Source: Candidatus Levyibacteriota bacterium | Lineage (GTDB): Bacteria > Patescibacteriota > Microgenomatia > Levybacterales > UBA12049 | NCBI GenBank assembly: GCA_016217835.1 | Contig: JACRFQ010000043.1 | Coordinates: 1 to 63,235, forward strand | Direction: 5' to 3' | Length of the DNA stretch: 63,235 nucleotides | Shown here: positions 41,047 to 63,235 of the stretch, piece after piece | How the letters are laid out: each line of letters begins with the position of its first letter | How positions within the stretch are numbered: the stretch's first letter is position 1 | Notes under the pieces: generated by a model | The model's database searches: none | Told to the model about the DNA's origin: nothing | Seen by the model: the letters and a program-made list of their open reading frames with translations, nothing else | Translations under genes and position numbers: made by a program

Positions 41047-41805
41047 ATGAAAAACGTAAATAAAAAATTAATAAAAGGGGTAATAGAGGAGGTAAATGGT
41101 CTGGCATTCAAAAATTCAGAGCCTTATTCGGAATCTGCAAAGATTTTTTTCCAAAACCGTTATTCAGAAATCGTAAAACTTTTACCTGAAATTAAAAAAG
41201 AAGACTTAGGGCTCGAAATTGGCTTAGCAGGAGGAGTGCTGGCATTTGTTTTAAGGAGGCACTTTAACCTTAATAAGCTATATACATTAGAACATCCAAT
41301 TGTTTATAAACAATACAATAATCAATTTCTTAATAAATTAAAAAATGATTACATAATACTTGAGCCAGTAAATTTAGAGGAAAATAAATTACCCTGGCCT
41401 GATAATTTTTTTAATTTTATATTTCTTTGCGATGTAGTTGAACATCTTGTTCCATCCGACATTCCAAATTTAATAAGGGAGATAAAACGTGTTCTAAGAA
41501 AAGACGGTTATCTCGTTATCGTTACTCCAAACATAGCATCTTTAATAAAGAGGATAAATTTATTTTTTGGCAAAAACCCAATTGAGTTTGATTTAAAATT
41601 GCATGAGGAAGCAACCTATGGGCATATCAGGGAATACACCATGAATGAGTTATTATATATCGTTGAAAACGAGAACCTTAAAATTAAAAGAAAAAAATAC
41701 TTTATGATTGACGCTAAAAGAAATATATTTACAAGAATTGAAGATTTATGTAGCAAGATTTACCGACCATTTGCAAACAGTCTCGCCCTAGTAATTCAAA
41801 AATAG
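41047..41805 (+). CDS. class I SAM-dependent methyltransferase
   Basis: The motif I-like segment is LEIGLAGGVLAFVL, with FIFLCDVVEHL and GYLVIVTPN. Confidence 0.75.
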   Translation: MKNVNKKLIKGVIEEVNGLAFKNSEPYSESAKIFFQNRYSEIVKLLPEIKKEDLGLEIGLAGGVLAFVLRRHFNLNKLYTLEHPIVYKQYNNQFLNKLKNDYIILEPVNLEENKLPWPDNFFNFIFLCDVVEHLVPSDIPNLIREIKRVLRKDGYLVIVTPNIASLIKRINLFFGKNPIEFDLKLHEEATYGHIREYTMNELLYIVENENLKIKRKKYFMIDAKRNIFTRIEDLCSKIYRPFANSLALVIQK

Positions 41806-41834
41806 CTTCTAGCACTATTTTTGTCCTCGAACAA

Positions 41835-41843
41835 TGATATAAT
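41835..41843 (+). promoter_or_regulatory. extended -10 promoter TGaTATAAT
   Basis: TG at 41835-41836 and TATAAT at 41838-41843, with the ATG at 41859. Confidence 0.45.
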
Positions 41844-41858
41844 AGCTTCAATTAACAT

Positions 41859-42938
41859 ATGACGATTTTATTTTTTGCAAGGAGATTTTATCCTTTAATC
41901 GGCGGGGTTGAGAAGCATGTTTTGGAAGTAGGCAAGAGATTGGTTAAAAAAGGACACAAGGTAATCGTTGTAACCGAATACGAAAAAAATACGAATAAGC
42001 AAAATCAGCAGTCGGATCCCCTAGGTGCTACGATTGAGGGAATAGAAATTTTAAGGATTCAGGCGGGAAATGAGGACAAGCTAAAAAAGTTTAGAATTTG
42101 GTTTAAGCTATTAAAATACATTAAATTTATTAACTCCGCTGACATTGTTCATTGTCATGATATTTTCTTTTGGTACCTTCCTTTTAGATTTTTGTTTCCT
42201 TTTAAAAAAGTTTATACAACCTTTCATGGATACGAAGGAAATAATATGCCAAATAAAAAATCAGTATTAATGCATAAAATTGCTGAAAAGCTTTCGTGGG
42301 GAAATATTTGCGTTGGAGATTTTTTTAAAAAATGGTACGGTACAAAACCAACATACGTCTCATATGGAGCAGTTTCAGAAATTAATAATTTAGAAATTAA
42401 AAATAAAAACAATAGCAATAATAATTCAAAGATTGAAATTGTTTATTTAGGAAGGTTAGAAGAAGAAGCGGGGATAATGGATTATCTAAAGGCTTTAAGA
42501 AATATTAGTAAAAAATCTTTAAACTTTAAATTAGTAGTACTAGGTAATGGTTCGCAAATGAATAAGGCAAGAAATTATGCGAAGAAAAACAAATTAAGTG
42601 TGGAGTTTAAAGGATTCGTAAAAAATATAGATATTTATCTTAATAGAGCATCTTTTGTGTTCACATCAAGATACCTTGGGATGATGGAAGCTTTAATGAA
42701 CAAAAAATATGTTCTTGCAGTATATAACAATCAAATTAAGAAAGATTATTTGCAAATGACACCTTTTGCTAAATTTATTTCAATTTCAAAAAACTCAAAT
42801 GAAATAAGAGATCAATTATACAAATATCTTTCAGACGAAAAACTAAAAAACATAAAAATAAACAAGGGATACGCCTGGGTTAAAGATAAGACTTGGGAAA
42901 GGATGACAGATACGTATTTAAAACTCTGGTCTAGTTAG
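41859..42938 (+). CDS. glycosyltransferase family 4 (GT-B, retaining)
   Basis: The N-terminus is ILFFARRFYPLIGGVEKHVLEVGKRLVKKGHKV. The C-terminal half is GT1/GT4-like. Confidence 0.75.
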   Translation: MTILFFARRFYPLIGGVEKHVLEVGKRLVKKGHKVIVVTEYEKNTNKQNQQSDPLGATIEGIEILRIQAGNEDKLKKFRIWFKLLKYIKFINSADIVHCHDIFFWYLPFRFLFPFKKVYTTFHGYEGNNMPNKKSVLMHKIAEKLSWGNICVGDFFKKWYGTKPTYVSYGAVSEINNLEIKNKNNSNNNSKIEIVYLGRLEEEAGIMDYLKALRNISKKSLNFKLVVLGNGSQMNKARNYAKKNKLSVEFKGFVKNIDIYLNRASFVFTSRYLGMMEALMNKKYVLAVYNNQIKKDYLQMTPFAKFISISKNSNEIRDQLYKYLSDEKLKNIKINKGYAWVKDKTWERMTDTYLKLWSS

Positions 42939-42944
42939 TATAAT
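42939..42944 (+). promoter_or_regulatory. -10 box TATAAT, 8 nt upstream of the ATG at 42953
   Basis: Read directly. Confidence 0.35.
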
Positions 42945-42952
42945 ATTAGTTT

Positions 42953-44446
42953 ATGAAAAAATTTGTTCCTTTATTAATTCCCCTATTTATTTTTCTTTTA
43001 ACTCTTATAGTGTCCGGATATTTTTCCACTATTAATACCGATCCGCATCACGATGGCATTGTTTTAAAGCCTGCGATAGATATTGCGGAAGGCAGAATGC
43101 TTTTTAGGGACACTTTTACGCAATACGGCGCTTTTACAACTGTTATACAAGCTCTGGCAATTAAAATTTTTGGAGAATATTTAATAACAATAAAACTTTT
43201 AACAGCCTTTTTTTATGGATTAATTTCGGTTTTAATTTATTTTATCTGGTCTAGATTTTTATCAAAGAAACTTGCGATACTAAGCTTATTTATTTGGTTA
43301 TCGCTTGCTCCGTATCTTTCCGTGGTGTTCTTGCCCTGGTCATCTGTATACGCATTATTTTTTCAATGTTTAACGTTATATCTAATATTAAAATATCTAG
43401 ATACTAACAATAAAAAAGCATTATTGTTAGCCGGTATTTGTGCAGGACTTGCTTTTTGGTCGAAGCAAAATGTAGGTGCTTATACAATTACAGCATCGTT
43501 GGTTTCAATAGCACTGATACAGATTTTAAGTAAAAAGAAAATTTCAACTTTATTTCCAATTCTAATAAGATATTTAATTGGCAGTACTCTAGTATCTTTA
43601 CCAATAATGTTTTGGATAATTGGAAATGGGGCTTTTAACGATTGGCGGAAACAATCAATTTCTTTTGCTCTTTTCTGGGCGGAATCGTCTAAGCTACATA
43701 TTTTTAATCATTTTTTTCCGCGTTCAATTAGCAACATATCTATTTGGTCATTAATACCAATAGTTACAATGATTGCTTTTTTAAGAGAATTTTTCGGAAA
43801 AAAACCGAATTTGATAATTCTAGTAGTTTCCATTTTTGGATTGTTTTCCTGGTTACAATATTTTCCAATTCCCGATATAAGACATGTTCATTGGGCAGCT
43901 ACTCCGATGATTGGTATAACAATTTATATTTTCTTTAAGTTGGCAGAGTCAATTAATAATAAAAATATTGCAATAAAATATCTTATATTTATTTTTTTCA
44001 TTGTGTTAATATTTGCCCGTGATTTACATTTTGGAATTAAAAGCGGGTTTATTAAAGCAAGCAAACAATATAAGAGCTTAGATAGTCCGCCTGTATTAAA
44101 AGGTATGAAATTATCCGCAGCAGAATACGGCTTTTATAAAAAAACTTATGAAGACATTATAAAATATCAAAATATACACAGAAAAACAAATTTAATCACT
44201 ACCGGAAGAAACGCGTTATATTTAACCTTTATTAAGTCTGAAAATTTTCATCCAATATACGTCAATTGGGAAATGATGAATGAATCATTAATATATCCTG
44301 AATATTTATCAAAAATGAATGAATATATTACCAATAACAAACCTTTAATTATCGCTATTAAAAAACCATTACCTTTAGGATACTGCAGGCTTAATAATCT
44401 TGTAAACGCAGAAGATTTTGCGTTCTTAATCGCTCCATGCAAATAG
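42953..44446 (+). CDS. polytopic membrane protein, candidate GT-C-type (ArnT/PMT-like) lipid-carrier-dependent glycosyltransferase
   Basis: It has about 11 TM helices. An acidic first external loop (NTDPHHDGIVLKPAIDIAEGRMLFRD) and a C-terminal soluble domain are present. It converges on (tail-to-tail) a polyprenyl-phosphate GT2. Confidence 0.5.
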   Translation: MKKFVPLLIPLFIFLLTLIVSGYFSTINTDPHHDGIVLKPAIDIAEGRMLFRDTFTQYGAFTTVIQALAIKIFGEYLITIKLLTAFFYGLISVLIYFIWSRFLSKKLAILSLFIWLSLAPYLSVVFLPWSSVYALFFQCLTLYLILKYLDTNNKKALLLAGICAGLAFWSKQNVGAYTITASLVSIALIQILSKKKISTLFPILIRYLIGSTLVSLPIMFWIIGNGAFNDWRKQSISFALFWAESSKLHIFNHFFPRSISNISIWSLIPIVTMIAFLREFFGKKPNLIILVVSIFGLFSWLQYFPIPDIRHVHWAATPMIGITIYIFFKLAESINNKNIAIKYLIFIFFIVLIFARDLHFGIKSGFIKASKQYKSLDSPPVLKGMKLSAAEYGFYKKTYEDIIKYQNIHRKTNLITTGRNALYLTFIKSENFHPIYVNWEMMNESLIYPEYLSKMNEYITNNKPLIIAIKKPLPLGYCRLNNLVNAEDFAFLIAPCK

Positions 44447-44452
44447 CAGAGT

Positions 44453-45400
44453 CTATTTGATTTTCGGATTTTTAATTATACTTTTTACAACATATTTCGG
44501 ACGCTGTTTAACCTCCTCAAAGATTTTTCCGATATATTCTCCTAAAACGCTAATACCCAAAAGCTGAATAGCACCGATAAAAAGTATGGCTATAAGAACC
44601 GTAGTAATACCAAGCGGCGCATTTGGTATTGTAAGACGTAAAATAATCTGGACAACCATTCCAAGTAGCGCTAAAAAGAATACCAAAAGGGAAAGGAGTG
44701 TCATTAGCTGCAAAGGCACATAAGAAAAAGAAAGTATTCCCTTTGTTGCCCACTGAAAATTCTTAAGAAAATTATTTGTAGTTTTTCCAAACATTCTTTC
44801 CGGCCTTACATATGGAATGCCTGTTTGTTTAAAACCAACCCAAGCCCTAAGACCCCGTAGGAATCTATCTCTTTCCGGAAATTGTTTCAAAACATCCACG
44901 ACTTTTCTATCAATTAGGGAAAAATCACCAGCATCAAGGGGAATTTGTACATAAGACATTTTATGAAATATTCTATAAAAAAGTTTGTAAGCAATCGCCA
45001 TTAATATAGGCGCTTCTCTTTTTGTTCTTACTCCATAGACAACATCGTAGCCTTCAAGCCATTTTTTGTAAAATTTTTTAATTATTTCAGGAGGGTCTTG
45101 TAAGTCGCCGTCCAAAAAAACAATTGCGTCTCCAGTTGCAATATCCATTCCGCTTGTAAAAGCCATTTGAGAACTGAAATTTCTTGAATGGTTGACTCCT
45201 ATAACCTTTGGATCTTTTTTTACAATTTTTCTAATAACTTCTTCGGAATTATCGGGACTGCCGTCATTTACGAAAATTATTTCATAATCAATACCTATCT
45301 CTTTAAAGGTGTTTGTCAGCCTTTTATGCATGATTGGTATTGCCTGTCCGTCTTTATAGCAGGCAATTATTGCGGAAATTTTTTTCTTGTTATTTTTCAT
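44453..45400 (-). CDS. GT2 polyprenyl-phosphate glycosyltransferase (GtrB/ArnC-like) with two C-terminal TM helices
   Basis: The motifs are ISAIIACYKD, IFVNDGSPDNS and FLDGDLQDPPE. The C-terminal helices are LLSLLVFFLALLGMVV and LIAILFIGAIQLLGISVLG. Confidence 0.85.
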   Translation of the reverse strand: MKNNKKKISAIIACYKDGQAIPIMHKRLTNTFKEIGIDYEIIFVNDGSPDNSEEVIRKIVKKDPKVIGVNHSRNFSSQMAFTSGMDIATGDAIVFLDGDLQDPPEIIKKFYKKWLEGYDVVYGVRTKREAPILMAIAYKLFYRIFHKMSYVQIPLDAGDFSLIDRKVVDVLKQFPERDRFLRGLRAWVGFKQTGIPYVRPERMFGKTTNNFLKNFQWATKGILSFSYVPLQLMTLLSLLVFFLALLGMVVQIILRLTIPNAPLGITTVLIAILFIGAIQLLGISVLGEYIGKIFEEVKQRPKYVVKSIIKNPKIK

Positions 45401-46628: not shown

Positions 46629-46630
46629 GT

Positions 46631-47563
46631 TTATAAACTATACTTTATATGCCATTCTATTGTTTTTTTTAATCCTTGGTCTATGGAATATTTTGGATTC
46701 CATTTTAATACTTTTCTTGCTTTTTGGTTATTAGCTACCCAATTGTCTGTATCCCATGCCCGTTTTGGAAAAGTTCCTAATTTTAATTTTAATTTAAGAA
46801 TTTTTTCAATTTTTTTTACAATTTCTTTATTGGAATACTGTTTTCCCGTACCAATATTAATAATCTCTCCAGGGTTAAGAGGTGTAGTTAATGTTTTATG
46901 AAAAGCAGAAACAAGATCATCTATGAATACAAAATCTCTCTTAACACTTTCTTTGGTTACTAGTATTTTTTCGTTTTTTAAAGCTTTTTTAATTATTGTT
47001 GGGATAAATCTATTTTTTTCTTCAAATGGTCCATAAACAGAAAACGGTCTTATTATTACGATTGGCTTACTGTTTTTGATAGCGTATCCTTGAGCTAAAA
47101 GTGACGCAGCGCCTTTAGCTGCAGAATAATAGCTGTTTGGGAGTAGATAGTCAATTTCAGCCATTGGTTTATTTTTAAACCCGTATTCCGATGAACTACC
47201 GCAAACTATTAGTTTTTTATAGTTAGTCGACTCTGATGCATTAAATAAATTAATTAAACCCATAACATTAATATTTACTATTTTATTAAAATCAATCTCT
47301 GTAGAGGAATTTCCATAAGAAGCTAAATGAATAATATAGTCCGGTTTTATTTTTTTAATAATTTTTTTTAGTTTTAGATTATTGGTTACGTCTGCTTCAT
47401 GAATCTTAATTGTTCTAACGATTCCATTTAATCTCCAAAGATCAGATTTATTCCTAACCAATATATGAACTTTAAAATTTTTTTTCGCCAAAAATCTGGT
47501 CAGATTGGCACCTATAAATCCGTTTGCCCCTGTAATAAATATAGTTTTATTTTTTCCTGCCAT
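46631..47563 (-). CDS. NAD-dependent nucleotide-sugar epimerase/dehydratase (extended SDR)
   Basis: The motifs are GANGFIGANL (Rossmann), SSSEYG and the catalytic YSAAK. Confidence 0.85.
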   Translation of the reverse strand: MAGKNKTIFITGANGFIGANLTRFLAKKNFKVHILVRNKSDLWRLNGIVRTIKIHEADVTNNLKLKKIIKKIKPDYIIHLASYGNSSTEIDFNKIVNINVMGLINLFNASESTNYKKLIVCGSSSEYGFKNKPMAEIDYLLPNSYYSAAKGAASLLAQGYAIKNSKPIVIIRPFSVYGPFEEKNRFIPTIIKKALKNEKILVTKESVKRDFVFIDDLVSAFHKTLTTPLNPGEIINIGTGKQYSNKEIVKKIEKILKLKLKLGTFPKRAWDTDNWVANNQKARKVLKWNPKYSIDQGLKKTIEWHIKYSL

Positions 47564-47588
47564 AATTTTGGCTTATTATAGCAAATTT

Positions 47589-47597
47589 TGATATCAT
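47589..47597 (+). promoter_or_regulatory. extended -10 promoter TGaTATCAT (same 9-mer as upstream of glyQS)
   Basis: TG at 47589-47590 and TATCAT at 47592-47597. The ATG at 47607 is therefore more plausible as the start than the track's GTG at 47601. Confidence 0.45.
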
Positions 47598-47600
47598 ATA

Positions 47601-48503
47601 GTGCTTATGATTGAGGTTAAATGCGCAATTTGTAAAAATAATAAAAATACAAAAGTATTATATAAGTCTAGATTTATTAAAAAAAAATTAGATTTTAAAA
47701 CTTTTTCTGCGAGAAGAACTCCGGACAGGCTTCATTACAGGTTAGTTAAATGTAAGACTTGCGGATTAATATTTTCAAATCCAATTTTAGATAAGAATGA
47801 AATAAATAAATTGTATTTTAAAAGTGATTTTAATTACAATTTAGAATCAGAATATTTAAGAAAAACGTATTTTAAATATTTAGCAGAATATTTTTCAATT
47901 AAAGACATTAAAACTAAAAAGATTTTAGAAATTGGATGCGGTAATGGATTCTTTCTTGAAGAACTTCAAAAAAATGGAATAGATAATGTTTATGGAATTG
48001 AGCCAGGAAAAGAGTCAGTAGAAAAAGCAAACTTAAAAATAAAAAGAAGAATAAAAATTGATATATTAAAAAAAGACATATTTCCTAACGAAAGCTTTGA
48101 TGTAATTCTTTGTTTTCATACACTTGATCATATTCCAGAACCGAATGAATTTTTAAAGCTAGTATATTCACTTTTAAAAAGAAACGGAAAAATATTTTTT
48201 TTTGTACATAACACAAATGGATTATCTGTTAAATTATTAAAAGAAAAGTCTCCGATATTTGACATAGAACATATTTATTTATTTAATAACAATAACTTAA
48301 GACAAATTTTTATACAAAATAAATTTAAAAGTCCTGAAGTTTTCGATATTAAAAATTCTTATCCGATTAGGTATTGGATAAGGCTATTTCCCATAAATAG
48401 TTTTTTAAAGATTAGGTTAATAAATTTTTTACAATTTTTAAAATTAGATTTAATAAGAATTAAATTAAATGCAGGAAACATAGGAATTATTGCATCTAAA
48501 TAA
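47601..48503 (+). CDS. class I SAM-dependent methyltransferase with N-terminal zinc-ribbon (start probably ATG 47607)
   Basis: The zinc ribbon is CAICKNN..CKTCG. Motif I is ILEIGCGNGFFLEEL, with DVILCFHTLDHIPEP. Confidence 0.8.
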   Translation: MLMIEVKCAICKNNKNTKVLYKSRFIKKKLDFKTFSARRTPDRLHYRLVKCKTCGLIFSNPILDKNEINKLYFKSDFNYNLESEYLRKTYFKYLAEYFSIKDIKTKKILEIGCGNGFFLEELQKNGIDNVYGIEPGKESVEKANLKIKRRIKIDILKKDIFPNESFDVILCFHTLDHIPEPNEFLKLVYSLLKRNGKIFFFVHNTNGLSVKLLKEKSPIFDIEHIYLFNNNNLRQIFIQNKFKSPEVFDIKNSYPIRYWIRLFPINSFLKIRLINFLQFLKLDLIRIKLNAGNIGIIASK

Positions 48504-49248
48504 TGAAATCATTTAACCGCCTTTGATTAATATAGTTAAATTTTAAATCTATGTATGTTTTGAGCATTGACAGAAGCATTTCGTATCCGTTGCTAAATAT
48601 GTTATATTTTGATTTTCTTAGGATTTTTTTATCCATTATTACCGGAACTTCTGTTATTTTTATATCCTCTCTCTCCGAATAAATTGCAAGCTGGGCAGAG
48701 AAAAAAGCATTACTGCTATCACAGAATTTAAGTATCGGTAATATGTCTGTTTTTTTTAGGAAAACAGTTCCTTGCGTATCGCCAACATGAATACTAAATA
48801 ACTTTTTCAAAAACAGCCTATAAATACTAGATGCTATTTTTCTGCTTGCAGACGTGTAAATGACAGATTCGGAATGGGATTTCGAACCAAAAATCAATGG
48901 ATAATTATTTGAGATTTTTAACATTTCATTTAAATCTGAAAATCCAAATGGAAGATCAATAGCCGTTAACAGTATGTTTTCTCCTTTTGCGTTTATGATT
49001 GCGGTTTTTAAAGCGAGGCCATGTGATTTTTTAGCAAGGGAAATTATTTTTATGTTCTTATCCTTAACTCCCCTTAGTTTACTAAGAGTATTGTCTGTGC
49101 TTCCATTTTCAACTATCAGTATTTCAAAGCTTTTGTCTTTTAAAATTTTCTTCAAATCCGTTTGTATTTTTTTTATCATCAAGCTTATTACTTCGGCTTC
49201 GTTATGAACCGGAATACAAAAAGATAAAAAATATTTTGTTTTTAACAT
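48496..49248 (-). CDS. glycosyltransferase family 2
   Basis: The motifs are SFCIPVHNEAEVI, ILIVENGSTDNT and a DLPFG DxD-like region. Confidence 0.8.
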   Translation of the reverse strand: MLKTKYFLSFCIPVHNEAEVISLMIKKIQTDLKKILKDKSFEILIVENGSTDNTLSKLRGVKDKNIKIISLAKKSHGLALKTAIINAKGENILLTAIDLPFGFSDLNEMLKISNNYPLIFGSKSHSESVIYTSASRKIASSIYRLFLKKLFSIHVGDTQGTVFLKKTDILPILKFCDSSNAFFSAQLAIYSEREDIKITEVPVIMDKKILRKSKYNIFSNGYEMLLSMLKTYIDLKFNYINQRRLNDFII

Positions 49249-49273
49249 TTATTGTAAGTTGTTTACTATTTGT

Positions 49274-49287
49274 TGCTATATTATAAT
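49274..49287 (+). promoter_or_regulatory. overlapping -10 boxes TGcTATATT (49274-49282) and TATAAT (49282-49287)
   Basis: The ATG at 49295 lies 7 nt after the TATAAT. The track's TTG start at 49259 lies upstream of these boxes. Confidence 0.45.
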
Positions 49288-49294
49288 ACAAAAC

Positions 49295-50245
49295 ATGAAC
49301 GTAGCGGTGATAGGAACAGGTCAAATGGGGATTAATCATGTAAGAACATATGCTTTAATGAGGGATATTAACCTTATCGCAATTTCCGATATCAACAAAA
49401 CATTGGGGAAAAAAGTAGCAAAGGAATTTAAAACAAAGTTTTACATTAATTATGAGGAGATGATAAAAAATGAAAAAATTGACATTGTTTCCGTTTGCGT
49501 TCCCACAAAATACCATTATCAAGTTGCTAATAATACAATTAAAAACGGAATTAATACTCTTTTAGAAAAGCCAATTGCATTAGATGTTAAAGAAGCTGAT
49601 AAGTTGGTGAATATGTCAGATAAAAAGAATGTTAAATTTTTAGTCGGTCATATTGAAAGATTTAATCCCGCGGTTAAAAAGTTGAAGGAGATGATAGATA
49701 ATAATCAATTGGGTGATATAATTGCCATAATTGCAAGAAGAGTTGGCGGTTTTCCGCCGCAAATAGGTGATGCAAATATCGCGATAGATTTATCTATTCA
49801 CGACATTGATGTTGTTAATTACTTGCTTGACGACTTGCCAAAAGAAGTGGTTGTTAATAAACAAAAGAACCATATTAGCAAAAGAGAAGATTCCGTAGAA
49901 TTTTTTTTAAAATATAAAAAAACCTCTGCTTATCTGCAGGCAAATTGGATAACTCCGGTTAAAATAAGAAAGCTTAATATTACGGGAAAAGAAGGGTATT
50001 TGGAAATGGATTATGTTAGCCAGAAAATAGAATTTTATAAGAGTAATTATAAAAAATTTAAAAAGAAATTTGAAAACTTTTCTGATTATGTTTTAGAATT
50101 TTCCAAGCCGGATAAAATAGATATTAGGGTAGTAAAAAAAGAGCCGCTAAGGGAGGAACTTATATATTTTATTAATTGTGTCCGTAATGATATTAAAATT
50201 GACTCCGGATTTGCAATAGAGGCATTAAAAATTGCATTGAGCTAA
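49295..50245 (+). CDS. Gfo/Idh/MocA-family NAD-dependent nucleotide-sugar 3-oxidoreductase (WlbA/WbpB-like)
   Basis: The Rossmann start is [12 protein letters not shown], with the LEKP and GHIERFNP motifs. It is followed by acetyltransferase and aminotransferase genes. Confidence 0.8.
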
Positions 50246-50249
50246 ATAT

Positions 50250-50765
50250 ATGAGAAGTGTAAAAATTCACAAAACTGCGGATATTCATAAAACGGCAAAA
50301 TTGAGAAAAGGAACATCGGTTTGGAATTGGGTTAAAGTTAGTAAAGGAGCCGTTGTTGGTAAAGATTGTATTTTGGCTAAAGGTGTTTACATAGGAAAGA
50401 ATGTATCAATCGGAGATAATGTAAAAATACAAAATAACGCTTCGATTTACGAAGGCGTAATAGTTGAAAATGGTGTTTTTATCGGTCCTCACGTAGTTTT
50501 TACAAACGATAAATATCCTTTCGCAATTAATAAAGATGGAAGTTTAAAAAAGAAAAAGGATTGGGTATTGGAAAAAACAACAGTAAAAAAAGGAGCATCA
50601 ATAGGCGCTAATTCAACAATTTTGCCGGGGCTTACAATAGGAAGATTTTCAATGATAGGGGCAGGATCTGTAGTAACCAGAGATGTTCCTGATTTTACCT
50701 TAGCTTACGGAAATCCCGCAAAAGTTATATCTAATATAAACAATGAGTTAAAGCGAAAGAAATAG
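50250..50765 (+). CDS. left-handed beta-helix N-acetyltransferase (WlbB/WbpD-like)
   Basis: The hexapeptide repeats read [33 protein letters not shown], which closely parallels the WbpD/WlbB pattern. Confidence 0.85.
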
Positions 50766-50767
50766 CA

Positions 50768-56251: not shown

Positions 56252-56957
56252 AAATATTTCAATAGTAATCCCTTCATATAATGAAGTAGAAAATCTTTCC
56301 ATTTTAATAAAAAAAATTGACAGATATCTACCTAATTCAAGATTAATCATAGTAGATGATTCATCAATAAGTGAAAACAAAAAATCAAAGGAAATTATTA
56401 AAAATAAAAAAAATATTACTCTTATATCAAGACTTAAAAAAATGGGGCGTGGAAGCGCTGTATTGGAGGGATTTAAAATAGCTTTAAAAAACAAGAATAC
56501 ACAATATATTTTTGAAATGGATTCTGATTTGGCTCATGACCCAAAAGAGTTTAAAAGATTTATTAACGAAATAAATGTGTACCCTTATGACTTAGTTATC
56601 GGTTCCAGATATAAATCCGGCGGAAAAATAGTTAATATTTCGCCAAACAGAACAATAATGAGTCGGCTAATAAATTATTTTCTGTATTTTTGGCTTAATA
56701 TTAAAATAAGCGACTATACGAGCGGATTTAGGTTGTACAGTAGAAATGGAGCAGGATTCATTATTAAGAATAAGATAGAATCTAAAGGATTCATAGCCTT
56801 ATCAGAAATTGCGTACATGCTTTATAAAAACGGGTATAGCATATCTGAAGTACCAATTACATGGAATTTTAGACGATACGGAAAGTCTAATGTAAATTTA
56901 AAAGAATTATTTTCATCTTTGATTTTTGTTATTAGGTTAAGAATTAAATCTAGATAA
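56238..56957 (+). CDS. GT2 polyprenyl-phosphate mannose/hexose synthase (DPM1/Ppm1-like, soluble form)
   Basis: The motifs are ISIVIPSYNEVENL, IIVDDSS, GRGSAVLEG, EMDSDLAHDP and IGSRY. The start is taken at ATG 56238 rather than the track's 56199. Confidence 0.8.
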   Translation: MKNNKNISIVIPSYNEVENLSILIKKIDRYLPNSRLIIVDDSSISENKKSKEIIKNKKNITLISRLKKMGRGSAVLEGFKIALKNKNTQYIFEMDSDLAHDPKEFKRFINEINVYPYDLVIGSRYKSGGKIVNISPNRTIMSRLINYFLYFWLNIKISDYTSGFRLYSRNGAGFIIKNKIESKGFIALSEIAYMLYKNGYSISEVPITWNFRRYGKSNVNLKELFSSLIFVIRLRIKSR

Positions 56958-58191
56958 TTTCAAGTTTAGGTAGTGGGAAGATAAAATGTCCGTGTTTTAG
57001 ATATGCCCTCTCTCTTTTTAAAAATTCTTTTTTGAAAAACCATGGCAATACAAGCATGTAATCAGGTTTTTCTTTTCTGGCTTTTTCCTCCGATATTATC
57101 GGAATATTTACCGATGTAATTATTTTCCCCCATTTTTCCGGGTTTCTTTCAACTGCGTATTTTATTAATTTATTATTTAATCTAAAATATTGAAGCATTG
57201 TATTACCTCTTGTGGATGCTCCGTAAAGATATATTGTTTTTCCATTTTTGTTTTCCTTCTTAATAAAATCTGTTATTTTTAGTTTGTTTTTTTCTATCTT
57301 TTTTGCAAAATCTAAATAAACCCGTTTTTTATCAAGACCTAATTTTTTTTCGTGTTTTATCATTTTTTCAACCGCTTTTGTAATTCTCCTTTTTCCCTTA
57401 AATGCAATATAGGTTTTAAAGCTTCCGCCATTTAAATCCCGTAATTTAACGTCAAATACTTCTAAGCCATGTCTGTTTAATAAATTATTTAATGAAAGTA
57501 ATGAGTAATATTCAAGATGTTCGTGTACTATATTATCAAAAGCATTAAGTTTTAACATTTGGACTAAGTAATTCTGTTGGATTATAAATATGCCGTCTTC
57601 TTTTAAAATTTTTGTAATGTCCTCGACAAATTTATTGGGTTTTTCCATATCGTAGAAGCAGGATATTGCAGTTATTATGTCGGCTTTTAGATTTTTGGAT
57701 TTTTTATTAAGCGTCTCATAACTAAAAAAGTCATTAATTACTAAATCTGAATTCTTTTTTGCTTCGTTTGCCAATTTTTTAATCGGTTCTACAGCAACCT
57801 TGTAAACCTTTTTCGGATAATTTTTAAGAAGAGTTCCATCATTTGCTCCAATATCAACGGCAATAATTTTATGTTTTGTTCTGCCAGAGGCGGATTTCGT
57901 TTCACTCAATTTTCTGATTTTTGTTAACGCTTCTTTTGTAATGCCCTTAAGTTCATCCTGCATTGTTTGATTTATACCCGATCTGTATCCGTATCTTTCC
58001 GTGTATAAATATTTCGCAGGGGTTGTATAATCCAATTGAACAAGACTGCATTTTTTGCAAAGAATAATGTTGAGAGGAAATGATTTTTGCTTTATCTTAT
58101 TTTTTGTAAAATCAGATAAGTGTTGGTTTCCCAAGGATAATATTTTGATTAAGTTTTTTGATCCGCAAGATCTGCAATGTTTAATTTTCAT
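56950..58191 (-). CDS. NDP-sugar C-methyltransferase-type enzyme (zinc-binding N-domain + class I MTase + C-methyltransferase C-domain; TylC3/EvaC-like architecture)
   Basis: The zinc-binding part is CRSCGS..CKKCSLVQL. Motif I is VDIGANDGTL, and the C-terminal Rossmann-like segment is IYLYGASTRGNTMLQY. Confidence 0.7.
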   Translation of the reverse strand: MKIKHCRSCGSKNLIKILSLGNQHLSDFTKNKIKQKSFPLNIILCKKCSLVQLDYTTPAKYLYTERYGYRSGINQTMQDELKGITKEALTKIRKLSETKSASGRTKHKIIAVDIGANDGTLLKNYPKKVYKVAVEPIKKLANEAKKNSDLVINDFFSYETLNKKSKNLKADIITAISCFYDMEKPNKFVEDITKILKEDGIFIIQQNYLVQMLKLNAFDNIVHEHLEYYSLLSLNNLLNRHGLEVFDVKLRDLNGGSFKTYIAFKGKRRITKAVEKMIKHEKKLGLDKKRVYLDFAKKIEKNKLKITDFIKKENKNGKTIYLYGASTRGNTMLQYFRLNNKLIKYAVERNPEKWGKIITSVNIPIISEEKARKEKPDYMLVLPWFFKKEFLKRERAYLKHGHFIFPLPKLEII

Positions 58192-58226
58192 TAGCGAGGC
58201 AGGATATCGTATTATAAGGCTAAAGC

Positions 58227-58235: not shown

Positions 58236-58248
58236 TTCAATACCAAAT

Positions 58249-59469
58249 ATGGGATATACAAGGGATGCTTTTAGCGGAACCAGCTGGATCTCTTCTTACA
58301 AAATTTTTTATAGGATAGTATCCTTCTTAAGAATTGCGATTTTGGCGCGCTTACTTTCGCCTTCGCAATTTGGTTTATTTGGTATTGCGACTTTGGTTTT
58401 AAGTTTTCTTGAAACACTGACAGAAACAGGTGTAAATATCGTATTAGTACAAGTTAGAGAAAAAATTGAAGATTTTATAGATTCGGCATGGGTGGTATCA
58501 ATTATTAGAGGGGTTTTATTATTTATCATAGTTTTACTTTCTGCTCCATTTGTTGCAAGCTTTTTTAATACGCCTAAGGCTCAAGAAATTATTATGTTGA
58601 TCTCTTTGGTGCCTCTAATTAGAGGATTTATAAATCCGGCAGAAGTAAAATTTCAAAAAGACCTTAAATTTAAATATGAATTTTTATTTAGGTCATCAAT
58701 TTTCTTAATTGATTCAATGGTAGCAATATTTTTTATCGTTTTTACACATTCGGTTTATGGTTTGGTTTTGGGGTTGCTCGCCGGAGCAGTATTTGAGCTA
58801 ATTACATCATTTGTTTTCATAAAACCTACACCAAGATTTAGATTCAACAAACATTATGTCAGTGATATTTTGCATAAGGGTAAATGGGTTACTTCTTATG
58901 GAATTTTAGGTTATTTTGGAGACCAAGGAGATAATATTGCTGTTGGGAAATTGTTGGGCGCATCCAGCCTTGGTATATATCAAATGATTTATAAAATATC
59001 AATATTACCATTATCCGAAATATCTGATGCAATAAATAGGGTTGTTTTTCCAATTTATGTAAAAATTGCAGATGATAAAAACAGATTGCAGAAAGCTTTT
59101 TTTAAAACCAGTTTTGTAATTAGTGCTTTAACGATTGCGTTAGGAACTATGATTTTTATCTTTCCAAGAGAAATTATACTTATTGTTTTGGGAGACAAAT
59201 GGTTATCCGGCGTAGAAGTTTTAAGAATCTTATCCACATACGGAGTTTTACGCGCAATTAGCGGTTCGATTACACCATTGTTCTTAGCTGTTAAAAAACA
59301 AAATTACGTAACTGTAATGTCTTTTTTTAGATTTATCATTTTGGCAGTTACAATTTTTCCACTGGTAATCAAGTTTGGTATTATCGGGGCCGGATATGCA
59401 GTTTTGTTATCGGTTTTCGGAGAGATACCGGTTGTTGCATATTACACATACAAAATATTTAAGAAATAA
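58249..59469 (+). CDS. Wzx-like oligosaccharide flippase (MOP superfamily polysaccharide biosynthesis protein)
   Basis: It has about 12 TM helices. The N-terminal pattern is RIVSFLRIAILARLLSPSQFGLFGIA, and the glycan-cluster context fits. Confidence 0.75.
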   Translation: MGYTRDAFSGTSWISSYKIFYRIVSFLRIAILARLLSPSQFGLFGIATLVLSFLETLTETGVNIVLVQVREKIEDFIDSAWVVSIIRGVLLFIIVLLSAPFVASFFNTPKAQEIIMLISLVPLIRGFINPAEVKFQKDLKFKYEFLFRSSIFLIDSMVAIFFIVFTHSVYGLVLGLLAGAVFELITSFVFIKPTPRFRFNKHYVSDILHKGKWVTSYGILGYFGDQGDNIAVGKLLGASSLGIYQMIYKISILPLSEISDAINRVVFPIYVKIADDKNRLQKAFFKTSFVISALTIALGTMIFIFPREIILIVLGDKWLSGVEVLRILSTYGVLRAISGSITPLFLAVKKQNYVTVMSFFRFIILAVTIFPLVIKFGIIGAGYAVLLSVFGEIPVVAYYTYKIFKK

Positions 59470-59473
59470 TTAT

Positions 59474-60595
59474 ATGAAAATTGCTATTTTTTATTATATA
59501 CACTTTAGCGGAGCAAAAAGAGTGGTTCAAGAGCATGTTAGAGGATTAGCGTTACTGGGAAATAGTGTAGATATATACACTACGGATAACACAAAAGATA
59601 TTTTCGATCCCGGAATTTACGCAGACAATAAATTTCATTATGATTTTAACCCAAAGAGTATAAATTTACCAATAATTAAAAGAATTAAAAAAGATTTTTA
59701 TGACATCTTCTTTAGTTTAAAATCTTTACATAAAAAAATTGCAAATGATATTGACAAAAGAAATTACGATATTGTGCTTGTTCACACAGACATAAATACC
59801 CAAGCCCCGTTTTTACTTAAGTTTTTAAAGACTAAAAATGTTTATTATTGCCTGGAGCCCCTAAGAAATGCTTATGAATTCTCTTTAAGGCTTAAAGAAG
59901 ACGTTTCTTTTTTGAACAAGTTCTATGAGAATTTAAACAGATGGATTAGAAAGAAGATAGATTTGAAAAATGTACTTAGTGCAAACAGGATATTAACCTT
60001 ATCGCTATTTGCAAGAGAAAGAATTATAGCGGCGTATGACTTATATCCTAAAATATCATATCTGGGAGTAAACGAGAGGGTCTTTAAACCCAAAAATATA
60101 AAAAAACAAAAGCAAGTGTTTTTTGTCGCAGAAAAATATCCAATATATGGATATGATTTGGCTATTGAAGCCTTAAGTCTGATTCCAGAGAAAATAAGAC
60201 CTAAACTAAAAATTGTTTCCTGGAAAAAAAACAATGGTGAAAGATTGACAGACGAAGAGCTTGTAGATTTATATAATCAGTCGTTCGTTACGCTTTCATT
60301 AAGCAGATTTGATACATTTGGACTTGTTCCACTGGAATCCATGGCATGTGGTGTACCTGTAATAGCTTTAAACGTTGCGGGATATAGGGAAACCATGATT
60401 GACGGAAAAACCGGTTTTTTGGTAGATTTCAGTTCAAAAGAAATTGCACAAAAGATAATCTATTTTTTAGAAAATACTGATATTGCGGCAGAAATGGGTA
60501 AAAACGGGAGAAAATGGATAGAGGAAAAATGGACTTGGGAAAAACAGATAAGAAAACTTAATAGTTTTTTAGAAGAATTTAAAGCAGAAAAATAA
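59474..60595 (+). CDS. glycosyltransferase family 4
   Basis: The EX7E-type region is FGLVPLESMACGVPVIALNVAGYRETMIDGKTGFLV. The start is taken at ATG 59474, just after the flippase stop. Confidence 0.8.
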   Translation: MKIAIFYYIHFSGAKRVVQEHVRGLALLGNSVDIYTTDNTKDIFDPGIYADNKFHYDFNPKSINLPIIKRIKKDFYDIFFSLKSLHKKIANDIDKRNYDIVLVHTDINTQAPFLLKFLKTKNVYYCLEPLRNAYEFSLRLKEDVSFLNKFYENLNRWIRKKIDLKNVLSANRILTLSLFARERIIAAYDLYPKISYLGVNERVFKPKNIKKQKQVFFVAEKYPIYGYDLAIEALSLIPEKIRPKLKIVSWKKNNGERLTDEELVDLYNQSFVTLSLSRFDTFGLVPLESMACGVPVIALNVAGYRETMIDGKTGFLVDFSSKEIAQKIIYFLENTDIAAEMGKNGRKWIEEKWTWEKQIRKLNSFLEEFKAEK

Positions 60596-60597
60596 TT

Positions 60598-61431
60598 ATG
60601 AATTTTATTAAAGAAAGTAAAAAATATAAACCTAAAGATATTTATTTTAAGTTATTTATAAATAAGTTTTGGTTTATTCCATCCGATGTTTTGCAAAGAA
60701 GTATAGAAGCTAGTATTTGGGATCTTTGTAAATTTAAACACCCAATTTTAGATATCGGCATAGGTAACGGAGCGATAACGCCAATAATATTTAAAAACAT
60801 AAAAAAAATAGATGTAGGAATTGACATAGAACCAAGCGGACTTGATAATGCAATAAAAACAGGAAAATATAAGAAAGTTTTATGCGAGGATGCCGCAAAA
60901 ATGGGATTAAAAAGTTCTTTATTTAATACGGTTATAAGTAACAGCACGTTTGAGCATATAGAAAAGGATCTGGTAGCAGTATCGGAAGTATCACGAGTTT
61001 TAAAAAAAAACGGATTATTCTTTTTTACTGTCCCTTCTAATTTTTTGCCGAAATGGGTATTAGAGTTAGAAGAGAATAATCCTATACAAAAATTAAATAA
61101 ATTTAACAAAAGAGCAAATCACCTTCATTACAGAAGTATTTCAGAATGGAATAAGGTTTTTAACGACGATGGAATGAAAATTGAATTTTATAAATTTTAC
61201 TATCCTAAAAATGTTGCAATGTTTTGGTATAAAATGTTTAAGTTTTTTACCTATAAATTAAATAATAAAGAAATATGGTCTTATATTGGTTATTCTAAGG
61301 TATCAAAATTAATTCCCAAAAATATATTCAAATATTTTGAAGAGAAAATTCTTTGGAAATCGTTTCGTAAAGGATTCTTATCGGATAGCAATGAGGGAGC
61401 AATGCTTTTTATGGTTGTAAAAAAGCTTTAA
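60598..61431 (+). CDS. class I SAM-dependent methyltransferase
   Basis: The motifs are ILDIGIGNGAITP, VISNSTFEHI and GLFFFTVPS. Confidence 0.75.
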   Translation: MNFIKESKKYKPKDIYFKLFINKFWFIPSDVLQRSIEASIWDLCKFKHPILDIGIGNGAITPIIFKNIKKIDVGIDIEPSGLDNAIKTGKYKKVLCEDAAKMGLKSSLFNTVISNSTFEHIEKDLVAVSEVSRVLKKNGLFFFTVPSNFLPKWVLELEENNPIQKLNKFNKRANHLHYRSISEWNKVFNDDGMKIEFYKFYYPKNVAMFWYKMFKFFTYKLNNKEIWSYIGYSKVSKLIPKNIFKYFEEKILWKSFRKGFLSDSNEGAMLFMVVKKL

Positions 61432-61434
61432 TTT

Positions 61435-63235
61435 ATGAATAAAAGTTTTGAAGTTTCAATTATTATAGTTAACTATAATGTTGAAAGAAAAGTTTTAAAC
61501 TGCATAAAGTCACTTGTTAATTCAAAATCAAAAATTAATTTTGAAATAATAATTATAGATAACAGTGAATTTAATAATTTAGAAAAATTTATAAAGAAAT
61601 TTTCTAATGTCAGATATTTTAAGGCTTTAAAGAATTTAGGATTTGGCGGAGGAAACAACTTGGGCGCAAAATATGCCAAAGGTGAATATCTGTTTTTTTT
61701 AAATCCAGATACTCTGATAGTTGATGATGCGATTGAAAAACTTTATAAACTTATTAAATCAGACAATAAGATTGGAATAGTTTCTCCATTATTGGTAGAT
61801 AAGAATTTGCAGCCTTTCAGTACGCAAAGTAGAAAAGAATTAACACCTATTAATGCTATTTTTTCTTTTTCTTTATTAAGAAAACTATTTCCTCAAAAAA
61901 ACATATATTCAGATCCATTTTTTGAAAATTGGGATTATAAGAAGCCTATTGAAGTTGATACAGTTCCAGGCGCTGCTTTAATGATTTCTAAAAAACTTTT
62001 TGATAAAGTTAACGGATTTGATGAGAGATTTTTTCTTTACTTTGAAGAAAACGACTTATCAAAAAGGATTAAAGAATTAGGTTTTAAATTATATATAAAT
62101 CCGAACGCAAAAGTGATTCATGAGGTTGGACAAAGCATAAAGCAAATAAAAACACGAGATAGTTATTTTGAGAAAAGCAGATTTTTATATTTGAAAAAAC
62201 ATTATGGATTAGTAAAGGCTTTATTTACAGAGTCAATACTGCGAATAAATAAAACATCAGTTGTATTGTCGTTTATATTACTATCAGCATTCTTTTTAAG
62301 AATAGTAAACTTGTCGGTAAGTATGCCGTTTATCGGCGACCAGGGCTGGTTTTATTTATCGGCAAGAGACATGCTTATAGAAGGTAAAATTCCATTGGTG
62401 GGTATAACGTCAAGTCATACGTGGCTTCATCAGGGTCCTTTATGGACGTATATGCTTTCTGTGGCTCTATTGTTAGGTAAATTTAATCCATTGTCCGGTG
62501 GAATTTTAACCGCAATTTTTGGTTTAGGTTCTACGTATTTGATGTATAAATTGGGTTCAAGATTATTCTCCCAAAGAACAGGTTTAATAGCAGCGTCTTT
62601 GTATGCCGTATCGCCGCTTATTGTTTTTTTTGAGCGAATACCATTTGATCCTTCGGTAATTCCATTTTTTACCATTTTGTATTTTTATGCGGTTTTTAAA
62701 TGGGTAACGGGTAATATAAAATTTTTTCCTTTGATATTATTTTTAATTGCAATATTATATAACTTAGAACTTGCAACTTTTACTCTATTTTTCCCATTCA
62801 TCCTAATATTGATCTACGGATTTGTTAAGCGAAAGAATTTTGTTATTAAGTTATTAAATTTTAAAACATTTATTTATTCTTTAATATCTTTACTAATTCC
62901 CATGATTCCAATATTGATATATGATTTTTCAAACGGATTTAAGCAAACCGTTATATTTTTAGGTTGGATAATTTATAAGCCTTTTAGTTTTTTAATAAAT
63001 CATTCTTCAGGTAATTTAACCTCAAATGTCAACATAATTGTAAGTTTTATTTTAGTTAATATTCAGAAATTAATTTTTCAAACAAATTTGTTACTGGCTG
63101 TAATAATTTTTTTATCAAGCGTAGCATTATTAATGCATTTGGTGTTTGAAGAAAAAAGCGATAAGATTACAAATTCAAAATTCTTGCTTCTTTTTTTACT
63201 AATAATATCTTTTGCTGGTATATTGCTAAATCAAA
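61435..63235 (+). CDS. fusion protein, GT2 glycosyltransferase + GT-C (ArnT/PMT_2-like) membrane domain; 3' end runs off the window (not in the supplied ORF track)
   Basis: I translated frame 61435 by hand and found no stop through 63235, giving at least 600 codons. The GT2 part reads VSIIIVNYNVERKVLNCIKSL..IIIDNSE..LGFGGGNNLG..FLNPDT. The GT-C part reads GDQGWFYLSARDM..GPLWTYM..LGSRLFSQRTGLIAASLYAVSPL. Confidence 0.8.
   Translation, partial: MNKSFEVSIIIVNYNVERKVLNCIKSLVNSKSKINFEIIIIDNSEFNNLEKFIKKFSNVRYFKALKNLGFGGGNNLGAKYAKGEYLFFLNPDTLIVDDAIEKLYKLIKSDNKIGIVSPLLVDKNLQPFSTQSRKELTPINAIFSFSLLRKLFPQKNIYSDPFFENWDYKKPIEVDTVPGAALMISKKLFDKVNGFDERFFLYFEENDLSKRIKELGFKLYINPNAKVIHEVGQSIKQIKTRDSYFEKSRFLYLKKHYGLVKALFTESILRINKTSVVLSFILLSAFFLRIVNLSVSMPFIGDQGWFYLSARDMLIEGKIPLVGITSSHTWLHQGPLWTYMLSVALLLGKFNPLSGGILTAIFGLGSTYLMYKLGSRLFSQRTGLIAASLYAVSPLIVFFERIPFDPSVIPFFTILYFYAVFKWVTGNIKFFPLILFLIAILYNLELATFTLFFPFILILIYGFVKRKNFVIKLLNFKTFIYSLISLLIPMIPILIYDFSNGFKQTVIFLGWIIYKPFSFLINHSSGNLTSNVNIIVSFILVNIQKLIFQTNLLLAVIIFLSSVALLMHLVFEEKSDKITNSKFLLLFLLIISFAGILLNQ

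Follow-up and report, generated by a model that had tools for sequence, protein, structure and literature searches.

How does a Candidate Phyla Radiation (CPR) bacterium assemble the glycans of its surface, and how much of that work is done outside the membrane? The question is raised by 20 back-to-back open reading frames (ORFs) that run from position 41047 to the end of a 63,235-nt stretch of DNA from Candidatus Levyibacteriota bacterium (contig JACRFQ010000043.1, assembly GCA_016217835.1), the whole of which we refer to as the window. An earlier note made from the sequence had read these genes as a candidate extracytoplasmic glycosylation system, in which polyprenyl-phosphate sugar synthases load single sugars onto a lipid carrier and polytopic glycosyltransferases of the GT-C type transfer them outside the membrane. 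As we show here, this logic is supported by GT-C folds and by conserved synthase/GT-C pairs, but most likely not as a stand-alone system: the genes belong to a larger locus that, in relatives, also has a further GT2 glycosyltransferase, a fifth GT-C enzyme and a Wzy_C protein. We judge, on balance, that the genes make up the left-hand and middle portions of the principal surface-glycan locus, specifying a Wzx/Wzy-type glycan with several three-component extracytoplasmic modules (lipid-phosphate sugar synthase, flippase and GT-C enzyme), and that several sugars are very probably added outside the membrane from lipid-linked single-sugar donors. Genes are designated below by their first coordinate (Table 1).

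The large polytopic proteins are GT-C enzymes. Five of these had been claimed, but the 'membrane halves of the fusions' listed separately are those of 53663 and 61435 themselves, so that the count in the window is four: 42953, 51825 (GTCp) and the GT2::GT-C fusions 53663 (FUS1) and 61435 (FUS2). The AlphaFold2 (AF2) model of GTCp (51825-53684), built on a 76-sequence alignment, has a pLDDT of 91 and a pTM of 0.91, and its best 32 fold matches in the Protein Data Bank (PDB) are all GT-C enzymes (STT3, PglB, AftA, AftD, EmbA/B, ArnT, Pmt4, DPY19 and ALG3); the model also contains a C-terminal beta-sandwich domain and a last transmembrane (TM) helix. All four proteins score at or above the gathering cut-off of Pfam PMT_2 or PMT, and homologues of 42953 carry the name 'glycosyltransferase family 39'. 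In hhalign comparisons, GT-C families built from alignments (the C-terminal halves of both fusions, the 51825 family and two families of relatives) recognise one another at 81-98% probability and the single 42953 sequence scores 58-95% against the other GT-C families, while the Wzy_C family, taken as a polytopic control, remains below 30%. Since the listed fold matches of the FUS1 model (pLDDT 91), the best 50 being all GT-A, covered only its N-terminal domain (Chlorella-virus hyaluronan synthase, TarP, RmlT, PcManGT), the C-terminal half (residues 340-862) was compared by hhalign with the GTCp family, giving 93% (E=2.5e-7) over 301 columns. Searches of PDB sequences with the GT-C proteins, both single-sequence and profile, matched only the GT2 parts and returned no GT-C entry because of sequence divergence, as the fold search shows. 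The GT-C fold of 51825 thus comes directly from the fold search on its model, and Pfam together with profile-profile comparison very probably ties in the other three. The fold search and the comparison against the Wzy_C control rule out that the polytopic proteins are transporters or Wzy-like polymerases.

The earlier note had put forward DxD/ExD motifs of the first loop as a check, and in each of the four proteins that extracytoplasmic loop does have conserved acidic residues. In 42953, H33, G35 and D43 never vary and the conservation of D34 reaches at least 90%; in GTCp, the invariant stretch is Y83, E84, S85, G86, D87 and F88. Across 83 FUS1 sequences H357, P358, F359, Y361, M363, D364, E365, W366 and H367 are invariant, and the D364-E365-W366-H367 stretch is one that we take to resemble the DE motif in loop 1 of PMT enzymes. 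Lys/Arg-rich loops at ~280-290 and 318-330, read by eye from the sequence, suggest a topology that would place D364-E365 outside the membrane. The corresponding FUS2 residue, D302, is D or E in 48/48 sequences, and a single TM helix separates the GT2 part from the loop that bears it, a topology compatible with a cytoplasmic GT2 domain and a D302 loop on the outside.

Donors for such enzymes are made by GT2 lipid-phosphate monosaccharide synthases, and both of those claimed for the locus, 44453 and 56238, are upheld. The 44453-45400 product matches Synechocystis GtrB (PDB 5EKP, E=5e-73) and the ArnC structures (~1e-42), in both cases over the full length, and its C-terminal TM helices lie at residues 228-246 and 260-278; its best NCBIfam model is PgfS (1e-73), with 248 bits against an equivalog cut-off of 500. 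Across its entire catalytic domain, the 56238-56957 product aligns with Pyrococcus furiosus DPMS (5MLZ, E=1e-21), and its four top NCBIfam matches (AglJ, PpgS, PgfS and ArnC) are all lipid-phosphate sugar synthases. The soluble protein 48496 had been set apart as the one stand-alone GT2. It is indeed a GT2 and has no TM segment, but NCBIfam places PgfS, ArnC and a haloarchaeal Dol-P-hexose transferase at the top of its matches, and hhalign aligns it with the DPM1-like family at 98.8% probability (E=6e-17); judging from these similarities, 48496 is probably a third lipid-phosphate sugar synthase.

Synthase and GT-C genes are, furthermore, genetically linked and co-conserved, in good agreement with the pairing that had been proposed. 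Although the left arm of the locus (41047-51856) is variable between relatives, its module of 42953, the GtrB-type synthase, the transketolase-like enzyme and the short-chain dehydrogenase/reductase (SDR) recurs at 77% identity in another Levybacterium (locus L071). There the left arm reads MT-GT4-GT-C(497)-MT-GtrB-TK-TK-SDR-MT-MT-GTCp (MT, methyltransferase; TK, transketolase-like); the window has in addition the amino-sugar cassette 48496/49259/50250/50768 and an insertion sequence of the IS30 family. A functionally analogous module lies at 7001-15806 of locus L072 (Shapirobacteria, GCA_028710865.1), where a homologue of the 42953 GT-C is found near DegT, a 308-aa GT2, a HAD hydrolase, an epimerase and Ldh_2, as well as a 600-aa enzyme of the acetolactate-synthase type, which uses thiamine diphosphate (ThDP) but belongs to another ThDP family; this module looks like a branched-sugar pathway of the YerE kind that supplies a GT-C enzyme. 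The DPM1-like gene, for its part, stands next to a GT-C gene in 13/19 related loci, next to the C-methyltransferase gene in 11/19, and is fused to a GT-C domain in two loci described below. We consider 42953 the likely partner of the GtrB-like synthase 44453.

What the modules deliver is suggested by the genes that travel with them. The transketolase-like enzyme is split into subunits of 244 and 166 aa (410 aa in total) and lacks the transketolase C-terminal domain; its gene overlaps the GtrB gene by 4 nt and is thus translationally coupled to it, the two subunit genes likewise overlap by 4 nt, and only 2 bp lie between them and the SDR gene that comes next. The transketolase-like genes are kept together with GtrB and the SDR in L064 and L071. 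The small size, the missing domain, the coupling and this co-occurrence make it unlikely that the split enzyme serves the housekeeping pentose-phosphate pathway. ThDP enzymes encoded in sugar clusters add two-carbon branches (PMC4753412), and since the enzyme encoded here is a minimal ThDP enzyme, we propose, with low confidence, that the GtrB module supplies an uncommon sugar, possibly with a two-carbon branch, produced by the SDR and the transketolase-like enzyme. The SDR itself matches the NCBIfam LegB and dTDP-glucose 4,6-dehydratase models at ~1e-41, below their equivalog cut-offs. In the neighbouring cassette, the trio 49259/50250/50768 corresponds by NCBIfam to the standard route of oxidation, transamination and acetylation to a 3-acetamido sugar (49259 scores 299 bits against NF040723, whose cut-off is 450), and the 48496 module probably delivers a 2,3-diamino or diacetamido sugar.

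The wider organisation of the locus emerges from synteny across ~70 loci, namely L002-L004, L071 and 66 genome loci around FUS2 homologues, the homologues being named Candidatus Levybacteria or Patescibacteria. In L002, L003 and L071 the glycan locus occupies a fixed place after parB and a signal peptidase gene. The core order GTCp< (GT-C<) FUS1> DPM1-like> C-MT< Wzx> GT4> FUS2> (arrowheads mark gene direction) has been retained by dozens of species-level genomes whose proteins are 40-80% identical. Most of the 66 genome loci continue after FUS2 with a GT2 (~250 aa)>, a GT-C (~540 aa, PMT_2)> and a Wzy_C (~400 aa, PF04932, 1e-17)> gene, then with a convergent gene for a membrane-anchored Big-domain protein and with atpC/D/G/A. 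Of the 29 loci covered by complete 10-kb flanks, 27 have Wzx, 26 each the ~250-aa GT2 and Wzy_C, 25 the Big-domain protein, 24 GT4, and 20 each FUS1 and the downstream GT-C. The earlier note had recognised no Wzy- or WaaL-like gene, and there is none within the window; however, the window stops inside FUS2, gene 20 of the run, and in relatives (26/29) the Wzy_C gene lies ~2.5-3 kb further downstream, so that the missing Wzy/WaaL gene is most likely an edge effect. Identical proteins occur on only one contig, a 21.9-kb Logan contig that ends before 63235, and the downstream content is therefore read from relatives.

Several features of these surroundings are worth recording. The Big-domain protein, exemplified by L005 15782-16492 (minus strand; 236 aa), has an N-terminal TM anchor and Big_13/Glucodextran_B Ig-like domains; its gene has an equivalent in 45 loci, convergent to Wzy_C and placed between the glycan locus and the ATP-synthase operon. 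At the left border, both in the window (37847-39736, minus strand) and in L002, L003, L027 and L071, lies a gene for a secreted or anchored Peptidase_C39_2 protein whose N-terminal domain is swapped: it is LamG/3-keto-disaccharide-hydrolase-like here and consists of Kelch or BNR repeats in relatives. This C39-like protein could bind the glycan or be its acceptor. Many of the loci that are plainly Levybacteria-like by synteny and gene content (L007, L014, L016-L018, L021-L023 and others) carry the GTDB title 'uncultured Gammaproteobacteria', and a few are titled Actinomycetota, Acidiferrales or Sulfotelmatobacter; placeholder or mis-binned labels are likely.

We propose the following scheme for the Wzx/Wzy-type glycan with its extracytoplasmic modules. 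A lipid-linked oligosaccharide would be started elsewhere, possibly by the Bac_transf enzyme 23-634, and the GT4 enzymes and the GT2 domains would lengthen it on the cytoplasmic side; the C-methyltransferase, the other three methyltransferases and the amino-sugar cassette would modify the sugars. The MOP/Wzx protein would flip the intermediate, and a Wzy_C protein, as placed by the synteny of relatives, would polymerise or ligate it. In parallel, the GtrB-like 44453, the DPM1-like 56238 and probably 48496 would load single sugars onto polyprenyl phosphate; once these lipid-sugars are flipped, the four GT-C enzymes (42953, 51825 and the C-terminal half of each fusion, 53663 and 61435) would transfer them to the glycan. 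Since relatives have Wzy_C and the window contains a Bac_transf phosphoglycosyltransferase (PGT), the GT-C modules most likely decorate or extend a lipid-linked glycan of the Wzx/Wzy type, of which the MOP flippase (58249) is present. Which donor sugar each module carries, which synthase feeds which GT-C enzyme, which flippase serves them and what the acceptor is, we infer from this arrangement; gene identities, the GT-C fold, the homology of the lipid-sugar synthases and the conservation of the core and of the pairs are observations. The Bac_transf gene, whose product is the sole initiating-type sugar transferase in the window besides MraY, is followed by a gene for a 661-aa DUF4012 protein (676-2661, plus strand).

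A number of points weigh against this scheme. There is no initiating PGT in the cluster or in the loci of relatives, and the Bac_transf gene, which possibly starts the glycan, is 40 kb away. The Wzy_C gene, absent from the cluster as seen, is taken from relatives only. Nor does the cluster encode a flippase of the GtrA, SMR or MATE type, and there is no room for a small GtrA-like ORF between genes because the gaps measure at most 57 bp; either the single Wzx would handle the oligosaccharide as well as the lipid-monosaccharides, or flippases would have to be encoded elsewhere. No chain-length regulator (PCP/Wzz), LCP ligase or other ligase to the final acceptor, and no export component, was found among the genes of the window and the conserved neighbours. 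The GT-C fold of the FUS1 C-terminal half is not among the best 50 fold matches of that protein. The GT2 domains of the fusions are closer to TarS/TarP, hyaluronan synthase (HAS), PcManGT and rhamnosyltransferase-type GT2s, their nearest solved relatives, than to GtrB or DPMS, and so a role as lipid-phosphate sugar synthases is not demonstrable for them. 'Decoration', moreover, may be too weak a word for what four to five GT-C enzymes do. Finally, a literature search on GT-C glycosylation in CPR bacteria and Levybacteria found nothing, and no biochemical or structural-glycan data came to light for any Levybacterium.

Among known systems, the three-component systems offer the closest comparison. 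These decorate glycans built by Wzx/Wzy or ABC pathways and include the pentofuranose systems of family GT136 (PMC11127046); other representatives are GtrA/GtrB/Gtr* of Shigella and Salmonella phages, CsbB/GtcA/YfhO for lipoteichoic acid (LTA) and GacI/J/K/L of group A Streptococcus. Similar to these, our locus combines a GT2 synthase, here a full-length GtrB homologue, with neighbouring and co-conserved GT-C enzymes that would act outside, and the acceptor is presumably the glycan of a primary Wzx/Wzy-type pathway. It differs in having not one synthase and one GT-C enzyme but three candidate synthases alongside four to five GT-C enzymes, in lacking a GtrA/SMR/MATE-type flippase and having a single MOP/Wzx protein only, in the fusion of two GT-C enzymes to cytoplasmic GT2 domains, and in its CPR host. 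The Arn pathway (ArnA/B/C/D/E/F/T) shares the order of events, i.e. the sugar is tailored, loaded onto undecaprenyl phosphate, flipped and transferred, and here too tailoring enzymes are co-transcribed with an ArnC-like synthase beside an ArnT-like, PMT_2-type GT-C enzyme. However, the GtrB operon has no formyltransferase, deformylase (ArnD), SMR protein (ArnE/F) or ArnA-type domains, and no ArnB counterpart of the Arn set; it has an SDR and the split transketolase-like enzyme instead. CPR bacteria, moreover, are not expected to make lipid A.

The alternative that survives best, although we regard it as rather unlikely, is protein O-glycosylation, in which the GT-C enzymes, by a logic like that of PMT/GT39 and YfhO/PgfM, would transfer sugars from polyprenyl-phosphate donors straight to Ser/Thr residues of surface proteins, pilins or an S-layer and the Wzy_C protein would be a PglL-type O-oligosaccharyltransferase (O-OTase). 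FUS1 scores 41 bits against Pfam PF02366 (PMT), where the gathering cut-off is 22.7, with its Asp-Glu motif invariant in the first loop, and the DPM1-like gene directly follows and overlaps FUS1, an arrangement that mirrors actinobacterial Pmt (GT39) and Ppm1. Yet FUS1 departs from the actinobacterial enzyme in having an extra N-terminal GT2 domain with TM helices and no PMT_4TMC domain (Pfam), and a profile search of PDB sequences did not reach Pmt1/2/4. Wzy_C is also the domain of PglL O-OTases, and in relatives the membrane-anchored Big-domain protein is always beside Wzy_C and the secreted C39-like protein always at the border. The best NCBIfam match of 44453, PgfS, belongs to a streptococcal protein-glycosylation operon that also encodes an epimerase and two GT-C enzymes (PgfS, PgfE, PgfM1 and PgfM2 in S. 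mutans; compare also GtrB/PgtC2 protein O-glycosylation; PMC12041528). The likeness extends to the SDR and the GT-C enzyme next to 44453, but the PgfS score is half the cut-off, the GT-C enzymes here are PMT_2-type and not YfhO-type, and neither adhesin genes nor Ser/Thr-rich acceptors lie near the locus. None of the ORFs of the window contains a Ser/Thr/Pro-rich stretch or a Ser/Thr-rich disordered segment, and no acceptor can be named. The many cytoplasmic glycosyltransferases, methyltransferases and tailoring enzymes also point to a complex oligo- or polysaccharide and not to a single-sugar modification.

The fusion proteins invite a further reading. FUS1 has more than 120 full-length homologues with 44-83% identity; its GT2 domain and helices superpose on HAS and PcManGT, while the GT2 part of FUS2 is rhamnosyltransferase/chondroitin-synthase-like. 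The N-terminal half of FUS1 (GT2 and TM helices) is fused to its own GT-C half in ~21 clusters at 50% identity, also exists as a stand-alone protein of 305-330 aa, and is the only part matched in proteins of 708-779 aa, which thus have another C-terminal region. Fusions of the DPM1-like synthase to a PMT-type GT-C partner (752-764 aa) occur in L007 (3297-5555) and L038 (3068-5362), with orthologue identities of 63% and 54%, and GT4::GT-C fusions of 891-901 aa occur in L020 (758-3463) and L050 (2951-5626), the GT4 part being orthologous to 59474. The fusion of a cytoplasmic glycosyltransferase to a GT-C domain is therefore a recurring theme with varying partners. It is conceivable, if doubtful, that Levybacteria carry out most of the building or decoration of their main envelope glycan outside the membrane, with at least five GT-C enzymes, and that FUS1, FUS2, DPM::GT-C and GT4::GT-C are single-polypeptide two-compartment machines in which the cytoplasmic domain makes or primes a lipid-linked substrate for its own GT-C domain, with the HAS/PcManGT-like helices perhaps aiding translocation. 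A stricter form, in which every fusion is a synthase and transferase pair, is rejected: since GT4::GT-C fusions occur, fusion signifies pathway coupling and not necessarily a donor-synthase relation.

Less probable still is a polymer assembled chiefly by GT-C enzymes, as in the arabinogalactan, lipomannan (LM) and lipoarabinomannan (LAM) of mycobacteria and corynebacteria, with the four to seven GT-C enzymes per locus building the chain and Wzx/Wzy_C only priming or ligating it. As with mycobacterial EmbA/B/C and AftA-D, many GT-C enzymes (four in the window, up to seven per ~20 kb in relatives) share one envelope locus with lipid-phosphate sugar donors and three candidate synthases, and the GTCp fold, with its extra extracytoplasmic beta-rich domain, matches AftA, AftD and EmbA/B; the beta-sandwich may correspond to the carbohydrate-binding modules of Emb and AftD (PMC11127046). 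Against this, OST/PglB fold matches are as good as those to Aft/Emb, so that the fold does not indicate processivity, and the kinship in sequence is at superfamily level only. The locus has no decaprenyl-phosphoribose genes, i.e. no UbiA-type polyprenyl-phosphoribose synthase and no DprE-like gene, while its Wzx, conserved together with Wzy_C in relatives, is part of a pair that is the hallmark of repeat-unit polymerisation. That the locus is a mosaic of unrelated glycan genes without a single product, brought together by horizontal transfer and insertion-sequence activity, with GT-C/synthase adjacency accidental, is very improbable and largely refuted by synteny: the variable left half, the adjoining IS30 element and a GC content 5 points below that of the remainder of the window speak for it, but dozens of species-level genomes share the core order at one fixed place on the chromosome, modules of synthase and GT-C enzyme turn up repeatedly and even as fusions, and the genes overlap or sit at most 57 bp apart.

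With the Wzx/Wzy-type glycan and its extracytoplasmic modules as our preferred reading, the inventory of the locus is given in Table 1, for which all 20 ORFs were assigned with Pfam and NCBIfam. Intergenic distances range from -32 to +57 bp and the strand pattern is +++ ---- + - +++ - ++ - ++++. ORFs and domain matches confirm the earlier count of 20 consecutive genes with two GT4 enzymes, a Wzx flippase and nucleotide-sugar tailoring enzymes; the methyltransferases number four (41047, 47601, 56950 and 60598) and not five, the C-methyltransferase 56950 having been counted twice. The term 'island' fits in part: GC content is 29.7% in the locus and 34.5% in the remainder of the window, and the IS30 element adjoins it, but the position on the chromosome is conserved across the phylum. 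The IS30 transposase (39854-40834) belongs to an element that separates the C39-like gene from the cluster's first gene and is absent from the loci of relatives. The remainder of the window is housekeeping in character (dcw cluster, ftsA/Z, RtcB, an aminoacyl-tRNA synthetase, RodA, L21, ParB and tRNA-Val). It also encodes two SEDS proteins, one in the dcw cluster (22097-23170) and one at 34325-35407, and, side by side at 27996-30983, a PGA_cap (CapA-like) protein, a LigT-like 2',5'-RNA ligase/phosphoesterase and RtcB.

Table 1. Genes of the glycan locus, followed by two features of the window outside it (SAM, S-adenosylmethionine; PP and Pyr, domains of the ThDP enzyme)
Feature	Position	Strand	Evidence
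SAM-dependent methyltransferase, 252 aa	41047..41805	+	Pfam Methyltransf_11/23; ortholog at same position in L071
GT4a, GT4 (GT-B fold) glycosyltransferase	41859..42938	+	Pfam Glycos_transf_1, Glyco_transf_4; family in 17 related loci
Stand-alone GT-C, 497 aa, 9 hydrophobic segments	42953..44446	+	Pfam PMT_2, 38 bits
GtrB/ArnC/PgfS-type polyprenyl-phosphate sugar synthase, GT2 + 2 TM	44453..45400	-	PDB 5EKP, ArnC, NCBIfam PgfS
Transketolase-like ThDP enzyme, Pyr-domain subunit, 166 aa	45397..45897	-	Pfam Transket_pyr
Transketolase-like ThDP enzyme, PP-domain subunit, 244 aa	45894..46628	-	Pfam Transketolase_N, DXP_synthase_N
SDR NDP-sugar epimerase/4,6-dehydratase	46631..47563	-	Pfam Epimerase, 5e-49
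SAM methyltransferase, Cys-rich stretch at N-terminus	47601..48503	+	Pfam Methyltransf_23, 2e-23
Soluble GT2, 250 aa, probably third lipid-phosphate sugar synthase	48496..49248	-	NCBIfam, hhalign
GFO/IDH/MocA oxidoreductase, UDP-GlcNAc 3-dehydrogenase-like	49259..50245	+	NCBIfam NF040723, 4e-89
Hexapeptide-repeat sugar N-acetyltransferase	50250..50765	+	Pfam Hexapep; NCBIfam NeuD/PglB/VioB family
DegT/PseC-type sugar aminotransferase	50768..51856	+	Pfam DegT_DnrJ_EryC1, 6e-136
GTCp, stand-alone GT-C, 610-619 aa	51825..53684	-	Pfam PTPS_related/PMT_2; AF2 model
FUS1, GT2(GT-A)::GT-C fusion, 862 aa	53663..56251	+	Pfam Glycos_transf_2, PMT (41 bits), PMT_2
DPM1/DPMS-like soluble polyprenyl-phosphate hexose synthase, 239 aa	56238..56957	+	PDB 5MLZ, 1e-21
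TylC3-type NDP-hexose C-methyltransferase	56950..58191	-	Pfam Methyltransf_13, _23, _14 (Methyltransf_14, 5e-46)
MOP/Wzx-family flippase	58249..59469	+	Pfam Polysacc_synt_3, 3.5e-66; NCBIfam MOP flippase, 2e-53
GT4b, GT4 (GT-B) glycosyltransferase	59474..60595	+	Pfam Glycos_transf_1
SAM methyltransferase	60598..61431	+	Pfam Methyltransf_11
FUS2, GT2(GT-A)::GT-C fusion, cut by window end (600 of ~730 aa)	61435..63235	+	Pfam Glycos_transf_2, PMT_2
Small Bac_transf PGT, candidate initiating enzyme	23..634	+	Pfam PF02397, 2e-61
IS30-family insertion sequence at left border, outside pathway	39811..40865	+	Pfam HTH_38, rve; 28-nt imperfect terminal inverted repeats

The locus is unusual in three ways: GT-C enzymes and lipid-sugar synthases are concentrated in a single CPR locus that is conserved throughout the phylum, cytoplasmic glycosyltransferase domains and GT-C domains have repeatedly been fused and split, and a transketolase-like cassette is attached to a GtrB homologue. 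Because the underlying logic of lipid-phosphate sugar synthase, flippase and GT-C enzyme is well established, the finding adds to what is known without overturning it. To our knowledge, nothing is known experimentally about the envelope glycans of CPR/Patescibacteria, bacteria that depend on surface contact with their hosts and are exposed to phages. Since it combines phylum-wide conservation at a fixed site with a hypervariable arm, the locus is a prime candidate for a determinant of surface identity, similar to a serotype. The recurrent fusions and splits constitute natural 'Rosetta-stone' pairs that could help to match orphan GT-C enzymes with their donors, which is in general an unsolved problem. 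Finally, the cassette of GtrB and transketolase-like enzyme may encode a new lipid-linked branched sugar.

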